Below, piece after piece: positions 1,292 to 10,786 of a stretch of 12,339 nt of DNA. Below the pieces are notes generated by a model. That model was not told where the DNA came from and made no database searches. It saw only the letters and a list, made by a program, of their open reading frames with translations. The number at the start of each line of letters is the position of its first letter. Position 1 is the first letter of the stretch. Origin of the DNA: an uncultured archaeon (GTDB taxonomy: Archaea; Asgardarchaeota; Jordiarchaeia; Jordiarchaeales; Jordiarchaeaceae). The DNA is taken from assembly GCA_964510585.1 (NCBI GenBank), contig CAZECW010000035.1, positions 1 through 12,339 of the forward strand, given 5' to 3'. Position numbers and translations under genes: made by a program.

Positions 1292-2707
1292 TTATATCGG
1301 CGGCTTTTTATCCCTCCAAGGAAAATTCTTCTCAAAAGCTCGGGAAGCCTGAAGCACACCCAATTCGTCAAACCGGTTACCCACAATCTGTAGACCCACA
1401 GGCAGACCTTCCCTAGTATAGCCACACGGAACAGAGGCCGCAGGTATATGGGTGAAGTTAAAGGGGAAGGTAAACGCTGTCCAACCCGTAGGTCCCACAG
1501 GCTTTCCCGCAATCTCATTGGGTCCCAATCCTACGTCTATTTTGAATGGGGGAACTGCATTCGTTGGAGTCAGGAGAAAATCGTACTTCTCAAAAATTCT
1601 TCTGAGCTGATCCCACAGTTCCTTGCGCCGGTACTCAATTTTACAATAGTCAGTGGCCTTTATGTGATCCGCCAGCCAGAGAAAGTCAAGGTATGGCTTA
1701 TAACACACCTTCTTCCATTCTTCCATACGGTCTCCCACAGCCGCAACAATATTCGAAATCTCCATACTGACAAAATCCGCCCCCATATCTATGAGATTCA
1801 GCTTTACCTCTTCCACTAAGCAGCCCATATCCTTAAAGGAGAAGGCAGCCCTTCTCACAATCTCCTCAACCTCTGGTTCAACTATCGCGTAACCCAAATC
1901 AGGACTGAAAGCAAACTTTTTCCCCTTAATGCCTCTATCTATGTTTTCAAGGTAACTCACACCCGGCGGTGGAAGCGAGAGATAATCCCTACTGTCAGGT
2001 CCCGCCATGATGTCCAGCATTAAAGCGGCGTCTGCAACTGTCCGGGTAATGGGACCTTCCACAGCCAAAGTCTCAAAACCAGGAAGTTGAGGCCAACGCG
2101 GAATACGTCCCAGGTGGGGTTTGAAGCCGAAAACACCGCAAAAACTAGCGGGGGTCCTTAAAGAACCTCCCCAATCATTTCCCACCGCGATGGGACACAA
2201 ACCAGCAGCCACCGCAGCCGCGGAACCTCCACTTGAGCCCCCACAAGTCCTAGTTTTATCCCAGGGATTTCTGGTAACTCCAAAAACAGGATTGTCCGTA
2301 ATGCCAATTAACCCGAACTCGGGAAGATTAGTCTTACCCATTATTATGGCACCGGAACTCCTCAGCCTCTCCACAAGAACATAGTCCTCCTTGGGAACAT
2401 AGTTCTCGTAAAGCTTTGAACCCCAAGTGGTGCGAACACCCTTAACGGGCATATTATCCTTTATGGCAACTGGAACACCATGCAGGGGGCCCAGCTTCTT
2501 GCGGCTCTTTACAGCCTTCTCTGCGGCCTCGGCCTCCTTCCGGGCACTCTCCTCTGTTAAAGTTACGAAGGCGTTAATTTCTGGGTTCACTTTCTCAATT
2601 CTTTTAAAGAAGGCGTCGACAACATCAACTGGTGATAATTCTCCATTCTTTACTGCTTTGGAAAGCTCCAAAGCGCTCATCCAAACAATTTCTCTCTCTT
2701 TAACCAT
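1292..2707 (-). CDS. Amidase signature (AS) family amidase, paralogue 1, 471 aa
   Basis: It has VAIKD (K83), the GGSSGGSAAAVA signature (S158), GNDWGGSLR (S182), GKTNLPEF and LPVGLQIVG, giving an intact Ser-cisSer-Lys triad. GCGGTG lies upstream of the ATG. Confidence 0.95.
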   Translation of the reverse strand: MVKEREIVWMSALELSKAVKNGELSPVDVVDAFFKRIEKVNPEINAFVTLTEESARKEAEAAEKAVKSRKKLGPLHGVPVAIKDNMPVKGVRTTWGSKLYENYVPKEDYVLVERLRSSGAIIMGKTNLPEFGLIGITDNPVFGVTRNPWDKTRTCGGSSGGSAAAVAAGLCPIAVGNDWGGSLRTPASFCGVFGFKPHLGRIPRWPQLPGFETLAVEGPITRTVADAALMLDIMAGPDSRDYLSLPPPGVSYLENIDRGIKGKKFAFSPDLGYAIVEPEVEEIVRRAAFSFKDMGCLVEEVKLNLIDMGADFVSMEISNIVAAVGDRMEEWKKVCYKPYLDFLWLADHIKATDYCKIEYRRKELWDQLRRIFEKYDFLLTPTNAVPPFKIDVGLGPNEIAGKPVGPTGWTAFTFPFNFTHIPAASVPCGYTREGLPVGLQIVGNRFDELGVLQASRAFEKNFPWRDKKPPI

Positions 2708-2753
2708 GAAACACCGCCCGTTTTTTATTAATAGTTTTATATCTTAAAATTGT

Positions 2754-4193
2754 TTAGTGTCCTCTTATTTTGCTCGGGTCTGCTTTATCTATTTTTTTGA
2801 TTGTTCCAATGAATGCTGCTGCCACTGGATTCAGCTGGTCTACCGCAACTTTATCCAGGGTGTCGCAGGGGTCAAAAAGGTACTCTGGTCCCGAGATACA
2901 GCTGTAGATGGGATATCCTGCTCTGAAGAAGGCCATGGCATCTGTGGGCACTCCCAGAGGAGTGGTTCCGGGCAATATTATGAGGCGTTCCAGATTGTAT
3001 TTCTCTGCTTCCACAGCCAAATTATAGACCAGGCTGCTGGTGGCTTCTTCATTTCCTCCCTTGGTGAAAACTCCTCGGGGCTCGGGCAAGCCGGTGTCCA
3101 CCCATTCCTCCTGTTCTACGTCGAAGTCTTGGGCAATATGCTCTATGCACACATCCATCACCAGTCTCCGCATTATGTCTGGATTACTCTCTATGAAGGT
3201 GCTGTCCCCTCTTGCTGGTCCCCCGAAGTGTGTTCCCGTGGATAGAAAAACTAGGGTTTTCTCTCTCTCTGATAAGGGTGTTTTGGTAAAGTGTTCGGCT
3301 AAGGCTAGAACTTCGGCTACTCCTGAGGCGTCCTCAACCGCACTGTTCCAGGGACCATCATGGTGGGAATGTACCACTATTGTATCTTTGGTTTGTCCTG
3401 GCAGCACCGCGACGATGTTGTGGGTGATAGCTGGCTCCACATCTCCAGTCAATATTAAGTTAGCCTTAAGGCTTCCTTTCGCATTCTGTAATTTTTCAAC
3501 TAGCTCTGCTCCGTCTCTTCTTCCAACCCATAGTCCTGGTATCCAACCCGGTATCTGTCCCGGTAATCCTAGGCGTGTGAGGAACCAGTCTGGCATTTCT
3601 TGGTTTAGAGGTCCGAAATAGGGGATGTATATTCGGTTTTCATTGGTGGGATAGTCGGCCAAAATACCTACTATTCCCGCTGCTTTTTGTTTGCATGAGT
3701 GCCAGTAGGCTCCCCACCAGTTGGGATAAATCCAGGCTGTGGGGTGCGCAAAATTTTTGAGTGTTTCCTTTGGGTCCCAGACAAAGAAAGCCATTTTCTC
3801 CAGAAGACTTGCCTGGAGCATTGGAAAGCGTACATTCATCAAAACAATTTTTCCCTCAACATCCTTACCTTCGAAATCCTTAGCAGTGCCGTCGCCTAAG
3901 TAAACGATTTCGCCCTCTACGCCATCCTCATCTGTGAAGCCGGTGTTAGGTGTGTGAAAGCAGGGTATTTCGCTTTCGCCCACGGTGAGCTTCCAGTCCC
4001 GGGCTTCCCATTTTAGTATGCGGTAGGGCTGCTTTTCCACATCGATTAATCCAAAATCTTCAAACTTCTTCGCAATGTATTCTTCAGCCTTGGAGTCCGC
4101 CAAAGTGCCAGGTCTCCGATAGCCGAAGGAAGCTATTTTCTCTATCCAGCTCGAAATTTCCTCATTGGAAACCACGTCGGATGCAAAATTCAA
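2754..4193 (-). CDS. M28-fold (Zn aminopeptidase-like) protein with PA-domain insert and non-canonical metal/catalytic residues, ~479 aa
   Basis: It has an N-terminal R.PGT.AD..AEEYI segment, a PA insert (GEIVYLGDGTAKDFEGKDVEGKIVL) and HNIVAVLPG...VVHSHHD, then AVEDASG, LVFLSTGTH, CIEH, PTDAMAF and YLFDPCDTLDKV. The ORF track starts at GTG 4202, but that GTG lies inside the SD-like GAGGTGA, so the in-frame TTG at 4193 is preferred. Confidence 0.85.
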   Translation of the reverse strand: MNFASDVVSNEEISSWIEKIASFGYRRPGTLADSKAEEYIAKKFEDFGLIDVEKQPYRILKWEARDWKLTVGESEIPCFHTPNTGFTDEDGVEGEIVYLGDGTAKDFEGKDVEGKIVLMNVRFPMLQASLLEKMAFFVWDPKETLKNFAHPTAWIYPNWWGAYWHSCKQKAAGIVGILADYPTNENRIYIPYFGPLNQEMPDWFLTRLGLPGQIPGWIPGLWVGRRDGAELVEKLQNAKGSLKANLILTGDVEPAITHNIVAVLPGQTKDTIVVHSHHDGPWNSAVEDASGVAEVLALAEHFTKTPLSEREKTLVFLSTGTHFGGPARGDSTFIESNPDIMRRLVMDVCIEHIAQDFDVEQEEWVDTGLPEPRGVFTKGGNEEATSSLVYNLAVEAEKYNLERLIILPGTTPLGVPTDAMAFFRAGYPIYSCISGPEYLFDPCDTLDKVAVDQLNPVAAAFIGTIKKIDKADPSKIRGH

Positions 4194-4242
4194 AATGTTC
4201 ACCTCTCTCTAACAAGTATTAGTATCCTCTCATAACAACCAC

Positions 4243-4258
4243 AAAATAAGCTTTTGCG
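4243..4258 (-). promoter_or_regulatory. BRE/TATA promoter of the M28-like gene
   Basis: The minus strand reads CGCAAAAGCTTATTTT about 50 nt upstream of the start, leaving room for a short SD-containing leader. Confidence 0.5.
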
Positions 4259-4262
4259 AAAC

Positions 4263-4285
4263 AAACCAAACCAAACCAAACCAAA
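4263..4285. repeat. Pentanucleotide microsatellite (AAACC)4-AAA
   Basis: Read directly: aaaccaaaccaaaccaaaccaaa, preceded by a degenerate aaac. Confidence 0.85.
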
Positions 4286-4390
4286 TTTAGCACCAAAAAG
4301 TACAAATTCTGCCCAAAAAAAGGGGAGAAAAGAATAATGGGGAATTGTTGGAGGTATTTGAATCAACTTTTTTGTTTGCTTCTCTGCACC

Positions 4391-5806
4391 TTAAATTGGT
4401 GGCTTCTTGTCCTGCCAAGGCAAAACCTTTTCGAATGCCCTGGAAGCTTGAAGCACTCCCAACTCATCGAAACGGTTACCCACAATCTGGAGACCCACTG
4501 GAAGCTTATCCTTAGTGAAGCCACAGGGAACCGAGGCTGCAGGTTGACCTGTAAAGTTAAATGGGAAAGTAAAAGCAATCCAGCTCACTGGGCCCACAGG
4601 TTTTCCAGCAATCTGGGAGGGCCCCATCCCTAACTCCAAGTTAAAGGCTGGAACAGCGGTTGCAGGAGTCAAAAGGAAGTCATATTTCTCAAAAACTCTC
4701 CTAACCTTTTCCCAGAGCTCTTTTCTGCGATACTGCGTCTTAACATAGTCGGTAGCCTTAAGGGCGTCAGCCAGCCAGAGAAAGTCCAAGTATGGCTTAT
4801 AACACACATTCTTCCACTCCTCCAAACGATCTCCATAGGCTGCAACTGTTTCTGCAACCACTTGATTGACCAGATCTCCCTCCATGTTTGGAAAGTCCAG
4901 CTTAACCTCCTCCACACTATGACCCGCATCAGCAAAATCGAAAGCAGCCTTCCTAGTAATCTCTAGAACTTCTGGGTCAACCACAGCATACCCAAGGTCA
5001 GGGCTGTAGGCGAACTTCTTTTTCTTGACGCTTTTCTCCAAATTTTCCAAGTAGCTCACACCGGGTGGTGGTAGCGAGAGATAATCCCTATTGTCGGGAC
5101 CTGCCATAATATCCATCATTAGGGCGGCGTCAGCCACAGTTCGAGTAATAGGTCCCTCCACAGCCATTGTCTCCCAGCCTGGCAAAGCCGGCCAGCGTGG
5201 AATGCGGCCCAGGGAAGGCTTTAATCCGAAAACACCGCAAAGGCTACAGGGAACCCTTATGCTGCCCCCGCCATCATTGCCCACCGCTATGGGGCACATG
5301 CCCGTGGCCACAGCAGCTGCGGAGCCGCCGCTGGAGCCGCCTGTGGTTTTTGTTCTATCCCAAGGATTCTTGGACGCTCCAAAAAGTGGGTTGTCTGTTA
5401 TGGGAATTAAGCCAAACTCTGGAAGATTAGTCTTGCCTAGTATTATTGCTCCAGCGTTTTTTAGTCGCTCCACTAAAACCATGTCTTCCTGTGGAACATG
5501 GTTCTCGTAGAGTTTGGAGCCGTAGGTGGTGCGGACACCCTTAACGGGAATGTTGTCTTTGATGGCTACTGGTACACCGTGGAGTGGTCCCAGCTTCTTG
5601 CGGCTCTTTACTGCCTTCTCTGCGGCTTCAGCCTCCTTCCGGGCACTCTCCTCGGTTAGGGTAACAAAGGCGTTAATCTCGGGATTAACCTTCTTGATGC
5701 GATTATAGAAAGCGTCTACAACTTCAACTGGTGAAATTTCTCCCTTCTTTATGGATTTGGCGAGTTGTATGGCACTCATCCATATGATTTCCTTCTTCTT
5801 AGACAC
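4391..5806 (-). CDS. Amidase signature (AS) family amidase, paralogue 2, 471 aa
   Basis: It has the same triad (K83, S158, S182 in GNDGGGSIR), a GTG start and a strong SD (AAAGGAGG) upstream. It is gap-free colinear with paralogue 1 at an offset of 3099 nt. Confidence 0.95.
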   Translation of the reverse strand: MSKKKEIIWMSAIQLAKSIKKGEISPVEVVDAFYNRIKKVNPEINAFVTLTEESARKEAEAAEKAVKSRKKLGPLHGVPVAIKDNIPVKGVRTTYGSKLYENHVPQEDMVLVERLKNAGAIILGKTNLPEFGLIPITDNPLFGASKNPWDRTKTTGGSSGGSAAAVATGMCPIAVGNDGGGSIRVPCSLCGVFGLKPSLGRIPRWPALPGWETMAVEGPITRTVADAALMMDIMAGPDNRDYLSLPPPGVSYLENLEKSVKKKKFAYSPDLGYAVVDPEVLEITRKAAFDFADAGHSVEEVKLDFPNMEGDLVNQVVAETVAAYGDRLEEWKNVCYKPYLDFLWLADALKATDYVKTQYRRKELWEKVRRVFEKYDFLLTPATAVPAFNLELGMGPSQIAGKPVGPVSWIAFTFPFNFTGQPAASVPCGFTKDKLPVGLQIVGNRFDELGVLQASRAFEKVLPWQDKKPPI

Positions 5807-6221: not shown

Positions 6222-7631
6222 TTAGAAGTTTAGTGTTTTTATTTCCAGTATTCTGCAGAATTCCGTGATTTCTTTTGTTATGTCTCCTACAACTAGTTGG
6301 GCGTGTTGGCTTGGGTAAACCTCTAAGATTTGCGCTGGGTCGCACTCTAAGCCTATGCTTATCACGGGCCACTTCATCATGTTTTCAAAGGCTTCACTTC
6401 TCACTATTCTTCCCCTGATTATTATCATAAGGTACTCCCCTTGGGTTCTTCCAAGCCTTGCCCATGTTATTGGTTCTCCCTCTTCTGCAATGTAGTGGAT
6501 TGCCGCTCCGCCCGCTTTTCCTTGGACTTGGGGTACAAGTTCTACTCCCTTGAGGTTTTCTTTAGGGTTTTGTGAACGTTTAGTGTACCAGGTGCTTGCT
6601 CCACCGCAGTTTGCGATGGTGAAAAGTCTTTTTTCCCGATCCCAGAAGAGTATGTCTCCGAAATAGACTGGTTTTCCGCCGCTTAGGAGTTTTAGTATCT
6701 GCATGGTGAGGGCTCCGTTTAGGTCTGCTTCGCAGGCGCAAGGGGTGGTTTCCTTTTTTCCCTCCGCATCGTAGGGATCATTTAGGAATGTGGGGGTGAG
6801 GCACTGGTTAACGTATTTGTCGCTGAGCTCGGGCTGACACTTAATCCCCACAAAATCTAATTCCAAGCTGGCCACTAATCGTTTCGCGGCCACGTAGCTC
6901 CTAACCTGTTTCTCCAAGGTTTCATCAGTGACCACTCCCCCATCCTTCAGGACTTTGCAGTTCTCATTAATCCATTCTAGGTACTGCTTCACAACCTGTG
7001 GGGGAACTTTTTCCGCTTCTCTTATGATTTCTACTTGGTCTATGTGTTCCACATCTACACCAAAGATTCTCTGAATCTGGCTAGGGTCAGCGGTCGCAGT
7101 GTATATTCCCATGGATCTTCCCCCAATTAAGCCTAGGGTTGAACCTCTTAAGCGGTTAATTGCAGTGGCGGCTCTCACAAATGCCATGGTTTCTGAGGCT
7201 ACTTGGGGGCTGTTTATGGCTCCACTTATATAGAGGGTTCTGTTTTTTATTCCCACCTCATCCAGTGCTCCCTTCACTGCTGTGGGTCCGCTAAGAGCCA
7301 TAGGAGCCAAAACCATTACTGGAAGAGAGTGGCTTTGGGCTTTTTTTGCCGCAGCCACACCTATGGAAGGGTAGGTCCAACTGGGAATGCACATGATGAG
7401 GGATTCTCCTTCCCTATGTACTAGTTCAGACACTGCTATTAGTGCTTCCTTCTTGGAGTTTACTCTTCCGCAGTCAATTGCCTCCGCTCCCTTCTCCTCC
7501 AACAGTTTTATGAGTTCTGTATGCAAGAATTCTTCCAGCTGTTTCATGTCCACTCCGCTTTTGAGCATTCCCTGGTAGAACTCCTCCCGGGGATCAACAA
7601 TACTTAAAACACCAACACTGGGCCTATGCAT
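6222..7631 (-). CDS. fucI: L-fucose/D-arabinose isomerase (FucI) family ketol-isomerase, ~469 aa
   Basis: Motifs correspond to those recalled from E. coli FucI: IVDPRE (~IDGRR), SWTYPS (~WCYGS), GRSMGI (~GVSMGI), GIKCQ (~GFQGQ) and FLNDPYDAEG (~ILNSSFDWNG). Metal-ligand equivalents are E in ACEAD, D in YFGD and H in PSQH (E337/D361/H528 in FucI). ATG 7631 with upstream GGGAGAG is preferred over 7703. The family call is solid; the substrate is not proven. Confidence 0.85.
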   Translation of the reverse strand: MHRPSVGVLSIVDPREEFYQGMLKSGVDMKQLEEFLHTELIKLLEEKGAEAIDCGRVNSKKEALIAVSELVHREGESLIMCIPSWTYPSIGVAAAKKAQSHSLPVMVLAPMALSGPTAVKGALDEVGIKNRTLYISGAINSPQVASETMAFVRAATAINRLRGSTLGLIGGRSMGIYTATADPSQIQRIFGVDVEHIDQVEIIREAEKVPPQVVKQYLEWINENCKVLKDGGVVTDETLEKQVRSYVAAKRLVASLELDFVGIKCQPELSDKYVNQCLTPTFLNDPYDAEGKKETTPCACEADLNGALTMQILKLLSGGKPVYFGDILFWDREKRLFTIANCGGASTWYTKRSQNPKENLKGVELVPQVQGKAGGAAIHYIAEEGEPITWARLGRTQGEYLMIIIRGRIVRSEAFENMMKWPVISIGLECDPAQILEVYPSQHAQLVVGDITKEITEFCRILEIKTLNF

Positions 7632-7690
7632 AAAGTGAACTCTCCCAAACTTTAATTCGACTTTTGAGGTAGTCTTAGCATTTTTAATGG

Positions 7691-7793
7691 GGTTTGGATG
7701 CATTTAAGTTTGCCGAAAGTTGCCCCATCTCCCGCAGAGTAGGCTATCATTCCAGGTTTTGATGCATTTTAAGTTTGCCGAAGTGCCATCCCA
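7691..7793. repeat. Imperfect tandem direct repeat (two copies, 64-nt period) in the divergent isomerase/aldolase promoter region
   Basis: Copy 1 (7691) is GGTTTGGATGCATTT-AAGTTTGCCGAAAGTTGCCCCATCTCC. Copy 2 (7755) is GGTTTTGATGCATTTTAAGTTTGCCGAA-GT-GCC--ATC-CC. Confidence 0.85.
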
Positions 7794-7920
7794 CTGAAGA
7801 TGCTTGGTTTTTTAACTCTTGTAGAGTCGTTTAGGGGGCGAAAATATTATTTGTGTGGAGCCTTCTTTAACCTATAAATGTTTGAATTTCGGAAAAATTT
7901 TTGGATAGGTGAATTTGGTT

Positions 7921-8727
7921 ATGGTTATTGGTAAAAAGTTTCGGTTGGGTAGGATTTTCCAGAAGGATGGAAAGTCTCTTGTTGTGGCTTTGGATCACTC
8001 CTTCACCTTTGGACCTATGCAGGGCATAGAGAAGCCCGGTGAAACAATTGAGAAGGTGATTGAGGGCGGCGCTGACGCAATAATGACCAGCTACGGTATA
8101 ATAAAGGAGTTCCACGACCTCATGGTTGGAAGGGTGGGCACAATACTACGCTTGGACAGCGGTGGAAGCATCTATAATCTTTTGGACTTTAATAAGGTGA
8201 CTGATTGGCACCTGATTTATAGTGTGGAGGAGGCGGTGAGGCTGGGTGTGGACGGCGTTATTGTTATGGGTTTCTTTGGTGCTCCCTGCGAAGCTGCCAC
8301 CTTGGAGATTCTGGGGTATGTGGCTGAGGAGTGCCACAAGTGGGGTATGCCCCTACTTGCGGAGACCCTTCCCATGGTTGGCAATATTGTTAAGGATGCC
8401 TACGATGTGGGACATGTATCCTTTGCTGCCAGAGTCGGGCAGGAGTATGGAGCTGACTTCATAAAAACTAATTACACTGGGAGTCCAGAGTCATTCAGAA
8501 AGGTTATAGAAAACTGTTCCATACCAGTTCTCATCGCTGGAGGAGCCAAAATGGAAACCCCAAAAGACGTTTTGGGAGTGGTGAGGGGAGCAATTGACGC
8601 CGGAGGGAAGGGCGTAGTATTCGGTAGAAACATTTGGCAGTACAAAAACCCTACAGCTATGACTAGAGCCATAGCAAAAATAATACACCAAAACGCAAGT
8701 GTGGAAGAAGCATTAAAGGAACTATGA
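7921..8727 (+). CDS. DhnA/FbaB-type class I (Schiff-base) aldolase, ~268 aa
   Basis: It has N-terminal GKKFRLGRIF, VALDH, GADAIM, DFIKTNYTG (Schiff-base Lys, codon 8464-8466), VLIAGG and VFGRNIWQ. ATG 7921 sits 8 nt after AGGTGA, so it is preferred to GTG 7909. Confidence 0.9.
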   Translation: MVIGKKFRLGRIFQKDGKSLVVALDHSFTFGPMQGIEKPGETIEKVIEGGADAIMTSYGIIKEFHDLMVGRVGTILRLDSGGSIYNLLDFNKVTDWHLIYSVEEAVRLGVDGVIVMGFFGAPCEAATLEILGYVAEECHKWGMPLLAETLPMVGNIVKDAYDVGHVSFAARVGQEYGADFIKTNYTGSPESFRKVIENCSIPVLIAGGAKMETPKDVLGVVRGAIDAGGKGVVFGRNIWQYKNPTAMTRAIAKIIHQNASVEEALKEL

Positions 8728-8785
8728 AAAGATAAAAAAAGGGTAAGAGTGAATATTACCGCATAAATTTTTGAATGTGATTGAA

Positions 8786-9736
8786 ATGTCTGTAAAGGTT
8801 TTGGATGTTGTAGGCATTGGATTGACCTGTGTAGACTTGGTAATGAGGGTTCCCAAGTTTCCTGAGGTTGACGAGGTGGTCATATCTTTTGAGTTTGAAC
8901 AGCATTTTGGTGGGGTGGCTGCCAACGCCATAGTAACATTGGCTCGTCTGGGAGCAAAGGTGGGATTTATAGGAAAAATAGGCATGGATCCCTTCGGATA
9001 CAATATGGTGAAGGCGTTTGAAAAGGATGGTGTAGACACCAGCAAAATAATAAGGGACAGACGTTTCGGCTCCGCCCTAAGCTTTATTCAGGTAGGCCCT
9101 AATGGGGAGAGAAAGATTTCCCACTATCCGGGAGCCGCCCCCTTCCTCACACCCGAAGATGTGGAGCAAACAAGTGACTACATTGCCTCCTCAAAGATGA
9201 TTCACATGGACGGGATTAATCCCCAATCTGCGATACGCTCAGCGGAAATAGCCAAAAAGAGGGGAGCCCAGGTTTCCTTTGACTTGAGCACCTCCCTAAG
9301 CGCGGTGGAGATTTTTGGCCTCACAAAAAAAGATGTGGAGAACTTTATTGGACTCATAGATGTTTTCATTCCCTGCAAAATTGCCGCCCAGGAATTAACT
9401 GGGGAGGAAGAACCCGAGAAGGCGGTAAGGAAACTTTTGGATATGGGTCCAAGCGTTGTGGGCATCACTCTTGGAAACAGGGGATGTATAGTGGCAACAA
9501 AGGAGGAAATTGTCAGGAAGCCCGCCTACAAGGTTGAAGTAAAGGATACCACGGGTGCGGGAGACGCTTTTCACGGAGCATTCCTCTACGGTCTACTCAA
9601 AGGGTGGACTCTGGAAAAAACAGCAGAATTTGCAAATGCTGTGGCGGCCATAAAATGCCAACACTTCGGGGCTAGAAGCGGATTACCCACAGAAAGCGAA
9701 GTGGAAAAATTCCTAAAAACTGCTCAAACCATATAG
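8786..9736 (+). CDS. PfkB/ribokinase-family carbohydrate kinase, ~316 aa
   Basis: It has VVGIG..CVD, GGVAAN.IVTLARLG (PfkB signature 1), GERKI, ITLGNRG and DTTGAGDAFHGAF (signature 2, catalytic Asp present). ATG 8786 is preferred to TTG 8771. Confidence 0.92.
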   Translation: MSVKVLDVVGIGLTCVDLVMRVPKFPEVDEVVISFEFEQHFGGVAANAIVTLARLGAKVGFIGKIGMDPFGYNMVKAFEKDGVDTSKIIRDRRFGSALSFIQVGPNGERKISHYPGAAPFLTPEDVEQTSDYIASSKMIHMDGINPQSAIRSAEIAKKRGAQVSFDLSTSLSAVEIFGLTKKDVENFIGLIDVFIPCKIAAQELTGEEEPEKAVRKLLDMGPSVVGITLGNRGCIVATKEEIVRKPAYKVEVKDTTGAGDAFHGAFLYGLLKGWTLEKTAEFANAVAAIKCQHFGARSGLPTESEVEKFLKTAQTI

Positions 9737-9753: not shown

Positions 9754-9822
9754 AACCCTAACATATTATCTTTATTATGCGATATGGATATTTTGAAGGT
9801 TAAGTTTTTTATTGGTGGTTTT

Positions 9823-10326
9823 TTGGGAACGAATTTTGAGAGAGCTAGGGTATGTATTCTTATGGCCATTAGTGATTTAGAGAGAGTTATTAGAAATTTT
9901 GAATCAGAGGATTTCGCCGCAGCTGTTTTTAGAGCTCAAACTTCTGCGGAGCGTTTATCTAAAGGTCTCATTTTTCTATTGGGTCTCCAATTCAAAAAAA
10001 CTCACAAACCCACGGCAATCATCAAAAAGGTTTTAGGTGAGAGACAACTTACAGAAACTCAGAAAAAACTGGTCTCGCAGATTATTTCAAAAGCAAAAAT
10101 TCTTGAGGAACAGGGAACAATACCTCGATATGGTGTCGAGACCCCTACTACGATTCTGCGTCCCGAAGAATTATATGACAAGAACAAAACTCTGGAGCTA
10201 ATTCGAGTGGCCAGTGAACTTGTTGATGTTTATATTCGTCTGTTGGAGCTCCAGAACCTATTTCCAGACGTGCAGCCCGAGTTGAGGAGGGTAAAAGTTG
10301 AGCTATCCAAACTATTCCCGAATTAA
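9823..10326 (+). CDS. HEPN domain protein (archaeal COG2250-like), ~167 aa
   Basis: It has F..A.F.AQ..AE+..K (FAAAVFRAQTSAERLSKG), KKTH, RY (IPRYG) and Y.K.....LI..A, and it is adjacent to an MNT gene. In-frame TTG 9823 follows GGTGG; ATG 9784 is the alternative start. Confidence 0.8.
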   Translation: MGTNFERARVCILMAISDLERVIRNFESEDFAAAVFRAQTSAERLSKGLIFLLGLQFKKTHKPTAIIKKVLGERQLTETQKKLVSQIISKAKILEEQGTIPRYGVETPTTILRPEELYDKNKTLELIRVASELVDVYIRLLELQNLFPDVQPELRRVKVELSKLFPN

Positions 10327-10333
10327 GCATCCC

Positions 10334-10786
10334 ATGTATAAAAAGTGGTTGGAGGATTATGTTTCAAACCTTCTAGAAAAGCTTGGCGAAAGAGTGGTAG
10401 CCATACTTGTGTTCGGCTCCGTTGCTGCTGGTAAGGCTCGATTCGACGAAGAACATCAAAGCGACATAGACATATTAGCCGTAATAAAGGAACTGCCAAC
10501 CGACTATTTCGAAAGAATAATGTACAAAACAGAAATACAGGGTATGACCGGCTTAGGGGTGGAGTCGATATGGTACACGCCTGAAGAAATGGTAAAAGTT
10601 GCTGAGAGAAAACCTCCATACATTCTAGACGCCCTAATTCACGGAATCATAATCTACGACACCGAAAAATTCCTGGAAAACGTATCAAACAAGCTCAAAG
10701 AGGACCTCAAAAGAAAAGGAGTCATTGAAACAGAAACAGCGTGGAAATGGCCAACCCGAAAAGCCATAGAAGAAATAGAATTCTAA
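10334..10786 (+). CDS. Minimal nucleotidyltransferase (MNT, Pol-beta fold), ~150 aa
   Basis: It has ILVFGSVAAG...SDIDILAV (GS + DxD), then ESIWYTPEE and DALIHGIIIYD. The ATG is 7 nt after the HEPN stop. Confidence 0.88.
   Translation: MYKKWLEDYVSNLLEKLGERVVAILVFGSVAAGKARFDEEHQSDIDILAVIKELPTDYFERIMYKTEIQGMTGLGVESIWYTPEEMVKVAERKPPYILDALIHGIIIYDTEKFLENVSNKLKEDLKRKGVIETETAWKWPTRKAIEEIEF

Follow-up and report, generated by a model that had tools for sequence, protein, structure and literature searches.

A candidate phosphorylative sugar-catabolic module combining a FucI-fold isomerase, a PfkB kinase and a Schiff-base aldolase in Jordarchaeia

Introduction

In the E. coli FucI-FucK-FucA pathway, L-fucose or D-arabinose is processed in three steps by an isomerase, an FGGY-family kinase and a class II metal aldolase. 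The E. coli ydj cluster provides a related scheme, in which the PfkB kinase YdjH 1-phosphorylates an unusual ketose and the ketose-1-phosphate aldolase YdjI then cleaves the product. To our knowledge, the characterised archaeal routes for pentoses and deoxy-sugars are all oxidative and non-phosphorylative.

Bacterial sulfo-EMP sulfoglycolysis (YihS or SqvD, YihV, YihT or SqiA) also proceeds by isomerisation, 1-phosphorylation and cleavage to DHAP. Its kinase, YihV, belongs to the PfkB family and its class I aldolase, YihT, to PF01791 (PMC8006165, PMC9594981), and hybrid sulfo-EMP/EMP2 clusters contain the FucI-family isomerase SqvD (PMC9594981). In archaea, no sulfoquinovose pathway is known (PMC12890257). 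A literature search returned no usable account of a FucI-like pathway in Asgard archaea, or of pathways that combine class I aldolases with FGGY kinases.

The locus considered here lies in a 12,339-nt stretch of DNA, the whole of which was analysed and is referred to as the window. With the fuc pathway it shares the three-step logic, the isomerase fold and the catalytic Glu/Asp, whereas a PfkB kinase and a class I Schiff-base aldolase take the places of the FGGY kinase and the class II enzyme. The comparison with the ydj cluster differs in other respects: YdjI belongs to class II, the ketose is supplied by dehydrogenases and not by an isomerase, and the system is bacterial. All three enzyme families are shared with the hybrid sulfo-EMP clusters, although YihT falls in the LacD branch and the present aldolase in the DhnA branch. 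A preliminary description of this DNA had noted that no characterised pathway was known to use this combination; at the family level this does not hold, given YihV with YihT and the presence of SqvD in the hybrid clusters (PMC9594981).

Gene organization

The three genes are real and arranged as previously described, with an isomerase gene (Pfam Fucose_iso N1, N2 and C) divergent from an aldolase gene (DeoC/LacD aldolase) and a kinase gene (PfkB). Corrected starts are given in Table 1. Homologues of the isomerase are ~469 aa long and cover 95% of the ORF, placing the start at ATG 7631. The aldolase most likely begins at ATG 7921, judging from its agreement with a near-identical 268-aa protein (P0121). 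With the kinase ATG at 8786, the 58-nt aldolase-kinase gap reported earlier is exact; the alternative TTG start upstream, at 8771, would give a gap of 43 nt. The suggestion that the DNA is archaeal is likewise borne out, as the nearest contigs carry the names Candidatus Jordarchaeia, Jordarchaeum and Lokiarchaeia. The organism is a member of the Jordarchaeia (Asgard) from hot springs, and the same DNA is present in hot-spring metagenomes of several studies, with no RNA data set among the sources listed.

Table 1. Features of the divergent locus, with positions numbered from the first letter of the window
Feature	Positions	Strand	Remarks
Isomerase ORF	6222-7703	minus	ORF call before start correction
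Aldolase ORF	7909-8727	plus	ORF call before start correction
Kinase ORF	8771-9736	plus	ORF call before start correction
FucI/AraA-fold metal-dependent aldose-ketose isomerase, 469 aa	6222-7631	minus	Pfam Fucose_iso N1/N2/C, ATG 7631
Divergent intergenic region	7632-7920		289 nt; candidate promoter/operator region
DhnA-type class I (Schiff-base) aldolase, Glu-x-Leu subfamily	7921-8727	plus	Pfam DeoC
PfkB-family sugar kinase	8786-9736	plus	Pfam PfkB; below every NCBIfam equivalog cut-off

The spacer between the divergent genes contains a direct repeat of ~30 nt (7691-7720 and 7755-7784, spacing 64 nt), for which 200 shuffles gave 0 chance matches. A single copy of this repeat is retained in the equivalent spacer of three contigs of the same genus (L032, L033 and L034). 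The spacer with its repeat is a candidate promoter/operator region.

The neighbouring genes in the window encode amidases, an M28-like hydrolase and a HEPN/NTase pair; by Pfam annotation, the window contains no transporter, regulator, glycosidase or aldehyde-handling enzyme. Because synteny of the amidase-M28-amidase genes is restricted to close relatives (L004, L005 and L032), and because these genes are absent beside the isomerase-PfkB pair in LC30 and Thermoproteota, they are not counted in the module.

Isomerase and kinase

The predicted model of the isomerase (pLDDT 93) has D-arabinose isomerase and L-fucose isomerase as its best PDB folds, with a TM score of 0.85 and 17-20% identity to 3A9R and 1FUI. 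The catalytic Glu and Asp of FucI (E337 and D361 in the E. coli enzyme) align with the isomerase at CACEAD and FGDI, and E301, D326 and H443 are invariant among 24 homologues. The last of these would be equivalent to the FucI-family His. The three-domain fold, the metal-binding/catalytic Glu and Asp, and a His place the protein in the FucI/AraA superfamily. It is nevertheless not an orthologue of FucI: it scores 41.6 bits (cut-off 850) and 51.5 bits (cut-off 775) with TIGR01089 and NF008220, respectively, and represents a short branch of 469 aa, as compared to ~590 aa for FucI. L-fucose and D-arabinose, which had been offered as example substrates, therefore have no specific support.

The kinase matches Pfam PfkB (PF00294) at 210 bits (E 6.6e-62) over profile positions 3-301 of 302 and contains the GXGD catalytic motif as TGAGDAF, which places it in the PfkB superfamily. 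Its top NCBIfam match is ribokinase, with scores under the cut-offs (TIGR02152, 196 bits vs 299; NF008353, 176 vs 341). Assignment as a ribokinase was rejected on these scores and on the replacement of GSxNxD and GGKGAN by GLTCVD and GGVAAN; Asn14 and Lys43, which we take to be ribose-binding residues of ribokinase (E. coli numbering), are not conserved. A weak match, at 78 bits, was found to PDB 3h49, YdjH, the PfkB ketose kinase of the E. coli ydj cluster.

Aldolase subfamily

The aldolase (Pfam DeoC/LacD aldolase, E 5.5e-44; predicted model pLDDT 93.5) resembles MJ0400 in structure, with a TM score of 0.91 and 40% identity. It retains the Schiff-base Lys (GADFIKT), the Asp-His pair and the P1 phosphate site (GG, GRN). 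These features and the TIM-barrel are common to T. tenax FBPA (1OJX) and the ADH synthase MJ0400 (2QJG), with TM scores of 0.82-0.91. In T. tenax FBPA, catalysis involves the Schiff-base Lys177, Asp24 and the proton shuttle Tyr146 (PMC2728841). The Lys and Asp are kept here, with Leu at the position of Tyr146 and Glu at that of Trp144. The resulting motif, E152-T-L154-P-M156, differs from both W144-S-Y146-P-R148 of T. tenax FBPA and M-M-Y-P-R of ADH synthase, and Glu-x-[Leu/Ile/Phe] is found in 120/120 of the best aldolase homologues. In the engineered T. tenax enzyme 1W8S (W144E/Y146F), the same two positions were altered; the present aldolase naturally carries Glu and a non-Tyr residue there.

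The preliminary description named ADH synthase and plain FBP aldolase as identities that would count against a sugar pathway. The former is ruled out by the TIGR01949 score (226 bits vs 299) and by the Glu-Thr-Leu-Pro-Met motif; the true ADH synthase of this genome (363 bits) lies on another contig, C209, in the order asd-ADHS-DHQSII. The latter is answered in part: the enzyme is not of the Trp-x-Tyr type, but a Glu-type enzyme could still cleave FBP. Some Glu-type members may indeed be plain FBP aldolases, since they are the sole DhnA homologue in three Thermofilales/Thermoprotei genomes. The genome also encodes an FBP aldolase/phosphatase (C51). Assignment as an LsrF thiolase was rejected (NF006081, 180 bits vs 297), and an LsrF-like copy scoring 428 bits is present on C99. 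With NF040816 the aldolase scores 208 bits against a cut-off of 430, which no control genome passes.

Genomic context separates the two motif types. At 23 other Glu-type loci, an FGGY or PfkB kinase is found in 10 and a Zn-ADH in 11; a kinase, Zn-ADH or sugar ABC component lies within 4 genes in 18/23, and DHQ synthase II or asd in 0/23. By contrast, the 54 Met-Met-Tyr-type loci have a kinase in no case and DHQS-II or asd in 38. The context of the Glu-x-Leu subfamily is sugar-catabolic, with accompanying sugar kinases, Zn-dehydrogenases and sugar ABC transporters, whereas ADH synthase accompanies aromatic amino-acid genes. In the sister genome G028, an 82%-identical aldolase is encoded in an operon in the order Zn-ADH, aldolase, FGGY kinase, a different ketose-making and phosphorylating route to a cleavage step that is presumably the same. 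Among longer proteins containing the aldolase, no fusion to a sugar kinase was found; the only fusions are of the ADH-synthase type, to aspartokinase and DHQ synthase II.

Distribution and linkage

Within the genus, three genomes (G000, G056 and G082) carry all three genes, adjacent to one another, and orthologues of all three are absent from G038 (one contig, closed, 100% complete) and G064. Every member of the genus has the ADP-PFK/GK gene, whether or not it carries the module. In L004, a relative with 75% identity, the gene order is rearranged and the three genes are still together. These observations support the view that the three genes form one accessory, or optional, unit.

Of 201 Asgard genomes, the same four encode orthologues of the isomerase (identity of 54% or more) and of the kinase (50% or more), and the two genes are adjacent in 4/4. 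Phylogenetic analysis groups the PfkB-linked isomerases in a single archaeal clade of Asgard and Thermoproteota (support 99/98), in which 10/11 members have a PfkB neighbour; in Thermofilales the isomerase and PfkB genes share an overlap of 4-16 nt. Two different PfkB subfamilies are represented among the neighbouring kinases, a pointer that the linkage is functional and not merely historical. The conserved core is the isomerase-PfkB pair. Outside Jordarchaeia, in LC30/Njord-like Asgard and Thermoproteota, no aldolase adjoins this pair, and the sole Glu-type aldolase of G034 is distant (37% identity) and encoded on a different contig. The expected conservation of the three-gene neighbourhood is therefore seen within the genus, where the genes are either adjacent or jointly absent, but does not extend to the aldolase outside Jordarchaeia.

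Two apparent associations were discarded. A kinase-isomerase fusion on contig L047 reflects a spurious long kinase ORF (773 aa) in a G+C-rich contig. In the Asgard family f9, kinase and aldolase homologues lie ~9 kb apart on several contigs; these aldolases are of the Met-Met-Tyr (ADH synthase) type and are unrelated.

Discussion

Considered jointly, the structural and comparative data point, with a probability of roughly 55%, to an accessory sugar-catabolic module that converts an aldose to a 2-ketose, the 2-ketose to a ketose-1-phosphate, and the latter to DHAP and an aldehyde. The pathway would involve: conversion of a free aldose or aldose-like sugar to the 2-ketose by the Mn-type FucI-fold isomerase; phosphorylation of the ketose by the PfkB kinase, most likely on C1, a position deduced and not readable from sequence; and cleavage of the ketose-1-phosphate to DHAP and an aldehyde by the Schiff-base aldolase. 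The substrate is taken to be a neutral pentose, hexose or deoxy-sugar. What is established here comprises the three folds and the catalytic residues in them, the inheritance of the genes as a set, the clade-wide pairing of isomerase and kinase, and the catabolic setting of the aldolase subfamily; from these we infer the order of the steps, the position of the phosphate, the formation of DHAP and the nature of the substrate. The isomerase-kinase-aldolase logic proposed at the outset, with a PfkB kinase and a class I aldolase, is thus supported by co-inheritance and catalytic residues, but its three steps are firm in the Jordarchaeia lineage only, because elsewhere the aldolase does not adjoin the pair.

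The role of the aldolase could be different. In a two-step entry, which we consider unlikely, the isomerase and the PfkB kinase would yield a ketose 5- or 6-phosphate (such as fructose-6-P, ribulose-5-P or xylulose-5-P) for central metabolism, and the aldolase would be a catabolic FBP aldolase carried as a passenger in Jordarchaeia. The pair without an adjoining aldolase in LC30/Njord-like Asgard and Thermoproteota fits this arrangement, as do the absence of class II FBA and PFK-A from the genome, the genomes in which a Glu-type protein is the sole DhnA homologue, and the presence of fructokinase among the closest solved relatives of the kinase. However, two residues of the solved archaeal FBPA, Tyr146 and Arg148, are missing from the aldolase; G038 and G064, which retain the ADP-PFK/GK gene, have lost the aldolase along with the isomerase and kinase; and the subfamily of the aldolase is recurrently coupled to FGGY kinases, none of which is known to us to make FBP. 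Alternatively, the kinase and aldolase might serve housekeeping upper glycolysis as a PfkB-type ATP-phosphofructokinase and an FBP aldolase, with the isomerase an unrelated neighbour. Archaeal fba-pfk operons and PfkB-family PFK are known, and the genome yielded no further obvious glycolytic FBA. This arrangement is nevertheless highly improbable, as both genes are missing from a closed genome of this genus, the 1-PFK/PfkB phosphosugar-kinase models match the kinase in its C-terminal third only, and the kinase accompanies the isomerase in different lineages with 50-74% identity.

Two further alternatives concern other substrates. An analogue of inositol catabolism in its lower half, following the logic of IolB-IolC-IolJ, would isomerise an aldehydo-acid such as 5-deoxyglucuronate, phosphorylate it with an IolC-like PfkB kinase and cleave it to DHAP and an acid semialdehyde. 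PfkB-aldolase fusions do occur in the inositol pathway (NF047869), and against the IolC N-domain model the kinase scores 158 bits. This score is below the 300-bit cut-off, the window lacks iolG/E/D-like genes, and no enzyme of the FucI fold is known to us to use uronates, leaving this analogue very little credence. An archaeal sulfo-EMP-like sulfoglycolysis, with a SqvD-like SQ isomerase, a YihV-like SF kinase and an SFP aldolase, is the least credible of the alternatives, even though its Pfam families are identical to those of the hybrid sulfo-EMP clusters (PMC9594981). The best NCBIfam match of the isomerase is the sulfoquinovose isomerase SftI (NF048012), at 90 bits against a cut-off of 700, and the kinase matches the YihV structure 7AG6 at 120 bits. 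The sulfonate triad of YihV, Lys27-Asn109-Arg138 (PMC8006165), is unmatched in the HMMER alignment to 7AG6, with K27 replaced by Val, N109 by His and R138 by a non-basic residue in a poorly aligned region. DUF4867/SqvB was not found, in a search that also gave no match in any control; the sole GH31 is MalA-like and not a sulfoquinovosidase; and the window contains no SLA reductase, dehydrogenase or exporter.

If the preferred pathway to DHAP and an aldehyde operates, it would represent a bacterial-style entry into glycolysis in Asgard archaea and Thermoproteota, assembled from different enzyme subfamilies. It would also provide a testable function for three widely distributed, uncharacterised subfamilies: the short FucI-fold isomerases, this PfkB branch and the Glu-type DhnA aldolases. 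A more tentative generalization, which we regard as doubtful, is that the Glu-x-Leu DhnA proteins constitute a hitherto unrecognised ketose-1-phosphate aldolase family in which Glu replaces the Tyr proton shuttle and which, with the archaeal isomerase-PfkB clade, would make up a phosphorylative pentose/deoxy-sugar route in both lineages. The aldolase is of enzymological interest by itself, as a natural counterpart at the positions engineered in 1W8S.

Gene organization

The structural, phylogenetic and neighborhood data partly support a catabolic module with the isomerase-kinase-aldolase logic of the preliminary description; this logic, which is also that of FucI-FucK-FucA, is predicted here with no particular substrate assigned. 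The three genes described earlier are confirmed, and the corrected kinase start reproduces the 58-nt aldolase-kinase gap. Because isomerase homologues are about 469 aa long (95% of the ORF is covered) and an ATG is available at 7631, the isomerase gene is shortened accordingly.

Features of the putative sugar module and adjoining genes
Feature	Position	Strand	Remark
Isomerase ORF	6222-7703	-	three L-fucose-isomerase domains matched
Isomerase gene, corrected	6222-7631	-	homologue length
Aldolase ORF	7909-8727	+	DeoC/LacD aldolase family match
Aldolase gene, corrected	most likely start ATG 7921	+	agrees with near-identical 268-aa protein P0121
Kinase ORF	8771-9736	+	PfkB match
Kinase gene, corrected	start ATG 8786	+	58-nt aldolase-kinase gap
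Divergent isomerase/aldolase spacer			289 nt; contains 30-nt direct repeat
Direct repeat, ~30 nt	7691-7720 and 7755-7784		spacing 64 nt; GGTTT(G/T)GATGCATTT(T)AAGTTTGCCGAA(A)GT
HEPN protein and MntA-like nucleotidyltransferase	9784-10786		overlapping genes, directly 3' of kinase
Amidase - M28-like - amidase genes	1292-5806

The spacer repeat, which may act as an operator or promoter element, has no further copy in the window; contigs from the same genus retain a single copy in the equivalent spacer. The HEPN gene occupies the same place in three other loci (L032, L033, L005); in the window, the HEPN protein and the nucleotidyltransferase are probably a toxin-antitoxin or defense pair. The amidase and M28-like genes adjoin the sugar genes in L004, L032 and L005 (Jordarchaeia-level, 74-96% identity) and are not beside the isomerase-kinase pair in more distant lineages.

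The source genome is a 3.78-Mb, 96%-complete MAG. The nearest public contig belongs to a Candidatus Jordarchaeia archaeon (isomerase 93% identical), and DNA of the window is present in hot-spring metagenomes of several studies.

The isomerase-kinase pair

The "FucI" label holds for the fold and fails for orthology. The isomerase model (pLDDT 93) superposes on D-arabinose isomerase and FucI with TM 0.85 at 17-20% identity, ahead of AraA (TM about 0.8). The catalytic Glu and Asp of FucI align (CACEAD, FGDI); these residues, E301 and D326, are invariant across 24 homologues, as is H443. FucI orthology is ruled out by scores of 41.6 and 51.5 bits against equivalog cut-offs of 850 and 775; the best NCBIfam match is the sulfoquinovose isomerase SftI, at 90 against a cut-off of 700.

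A maximum-likelihood tree built from 79 sequences of the family places the isomerases with a PfkB neighbor in a single clade (support 99/98), which contains Asgard sequences (Jordarchaeia, LC30/Njord-like) and Thermoproteota sequences (Thermofilaceae and relatives). PfkB adjoins the isomerase in 10/11 clade members, and in Thermofilales the paired genes share 4-16 nt. Among 201 sampled Asgard genomes, isomerase (at least 54% identity) and kinase (at least 50%) orthologues occur in the same four only: the source genome, its relatives G056 and G082, and G034 of an LC30-related genus. The genes are adjacent in all four. Kinase and isomerase identities move in parallel (74/75, 70/69 and 49/54%). 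The Thermoproteota neighbors belong to a different PfkB subfamily, grouping with another paralogue of the source genome; this isomerase clade is thus coupled to two kinds of PfkB kinase, a point in favor of a functional link.

The window kinase scores under every equivalog cut-off. Because neither Asn14 and Lys43 of ribokinase nor the sulfonate triad of YihV is conserved in it, and because phosphosugar-kinase models match its C-terminal third only, its substrate would most likely be a free, uncharged ketose.

The closest characterized systems at family level are bacterial sulfo-EMP clusters, which use the PfkB kinase YihV and the PF01791 class I aldolase YihT, with the FucI-family isomerase SqvD in hybrid clusters (PMC9594981). 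The family combination is therefore not unprecedented, and the earlier remark that no characterized pathway with it is known does not hold at this level. A sulfoquinovose route is itself rejected: the SftI score and the YihV triad fail, and the only GH31 is MalA-like. No such pathway is known in archaea (PMC12890257).

The aldolase

The source genome encodes three DhnA paralogues, on contigs C209 and C99 and in the window. The C209 copy is the true ADH synthase (363 bits vs 299), within an asd-ADHS-DHQ-synthase-II operon, and the C99 copy is an LsrF-type equivalog (428 bits vs 297) with a gene for a Zn-dependent dehydrogenase beside it (both in L003, 1483-3389). LsrF has a known role in AI-2 processing in bacteria. 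The window aldolase is neither, which removes the ADH synthase identity that the preliminary description had named as a refutation.

In the window enzyme the Schiff-base Lys, Asp-His pair and phosphate site (GG and GRN) are all conserved. It carries E152-T-L154-P-M156 at the site of W144-S-Y146-P-R148 in T. tenax FBPA and M-M-Y-P-R in MJ0400. Tyr146 (T. tenax) and Tyr153 (MJ0400) are the proposed proton shuttle (PMC2728841). The engineered T. tenax variant 1W8S departs from wild type exactly at Trp144 and Tyr146 (Glu, Phe), and Glu-x-[Leu/Ile/Phe] is common to 120/120 best homologues of the window aldolase.

This motif splits gene contexts cleanly. Of 23 Glu-type loci, drawn like the others from both metagenomes and genomes, 10 have an FGGY or PfkB kinase within four genes, 11 a Zn-ADH within four genes, 18 a kinase, Zn-ADH or sugar ABC part, and none DHQS-II or asd, while 38 of 54 Met-Met-Tyr-type loci have DHQS-II or asd and none a kinase or Zn-ADH within four genes; these counts are descriptive, many contigs being short and the relatedness of loci uncontrolled. 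Glu-type examples are: aldolase-FGGY-sugar ABC in a proteobacterium; aldolase-SBP-permeases-two FGGY kinases in Caldilineaceae; and GH36-like gene-aldolase-FGGY in a Thermoprotei MAG.

Trp-x-Tyr-Pro-Arg DhnA aldolases, as in T. tenax FBPA, occur in the LC30-related genus (L199, L200; G012, G034) and not in Jordarchaeia. An ADH-synthase-type homologue in another Asgard genome (G058:C106:84230-84994) contains one in-frame TAG.

Three-gene linkage and proposed pathway

Conservation of the three-gene neighborhood is limited to Jordarchaeia. Within the genus, G056 and G082 have the same adjacent trio. In L004 (75% identity) the order is kinase (leftward), isomerase (rightward), aldolase (leftward), placing the aldolase on the opposite side of the isomerase with the trio still together. 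Two other members of the genus, G064 and the closed genome G038, have no orthologue of any of the three genes. G028 has the aldolase alone (82% identity), in a translationally coupled Zn-ADH-aldolase-FGGY kinase operon (C245, 2346-5636; 4-nt aldolase-kinase overlap) that makes up an alternative, polyol-based route to a cleavage step that is probably the same. An ADP-PFK/GK gene is found in every member of the genus, with or without the module, and the source genome encodes FBP aldolase/phosphatase; the window aldolase is therefore not indispensable for glycolysis in the genus.

We place the full isomerase-kinase-aldolase route at a probability of about 0.55; that the isomerase and kinase form a two-step entry module, with the aldolase acting separately, is less likely. 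The three-step reading is weakened by the following: the aldolase is not seen beside the pair outside Jordarchaeia; in G034 the only Glu-type aldolase is a distant one encoded away from the pair, and it is missing from the congener G012, which has no isomerase; a Glu-type enzyme is the sole DhnA homologue in three Thermofilales/Thermoprotei genomes, and some members could therefore be ordinary FBP aldolases; and the window holds no transporter, regulator or aldehyde-handling gene.

The isomerase belongs to a large family of mixed function, whose bacterial members (34-42% identity) neighbor ABC transporters, FGGY kinases, split transketolases, URO-D-like and creatininase-like proteins, and HpcH aldolases. 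Across L036-L113, separate subclades of these isomerases associate with split transketolase genes (11 loci), with URO-D-like proteins (11 loci) or with creatininase-like and HpcH-aldolase genes, which suggests several more uncharacterized sugar routes.
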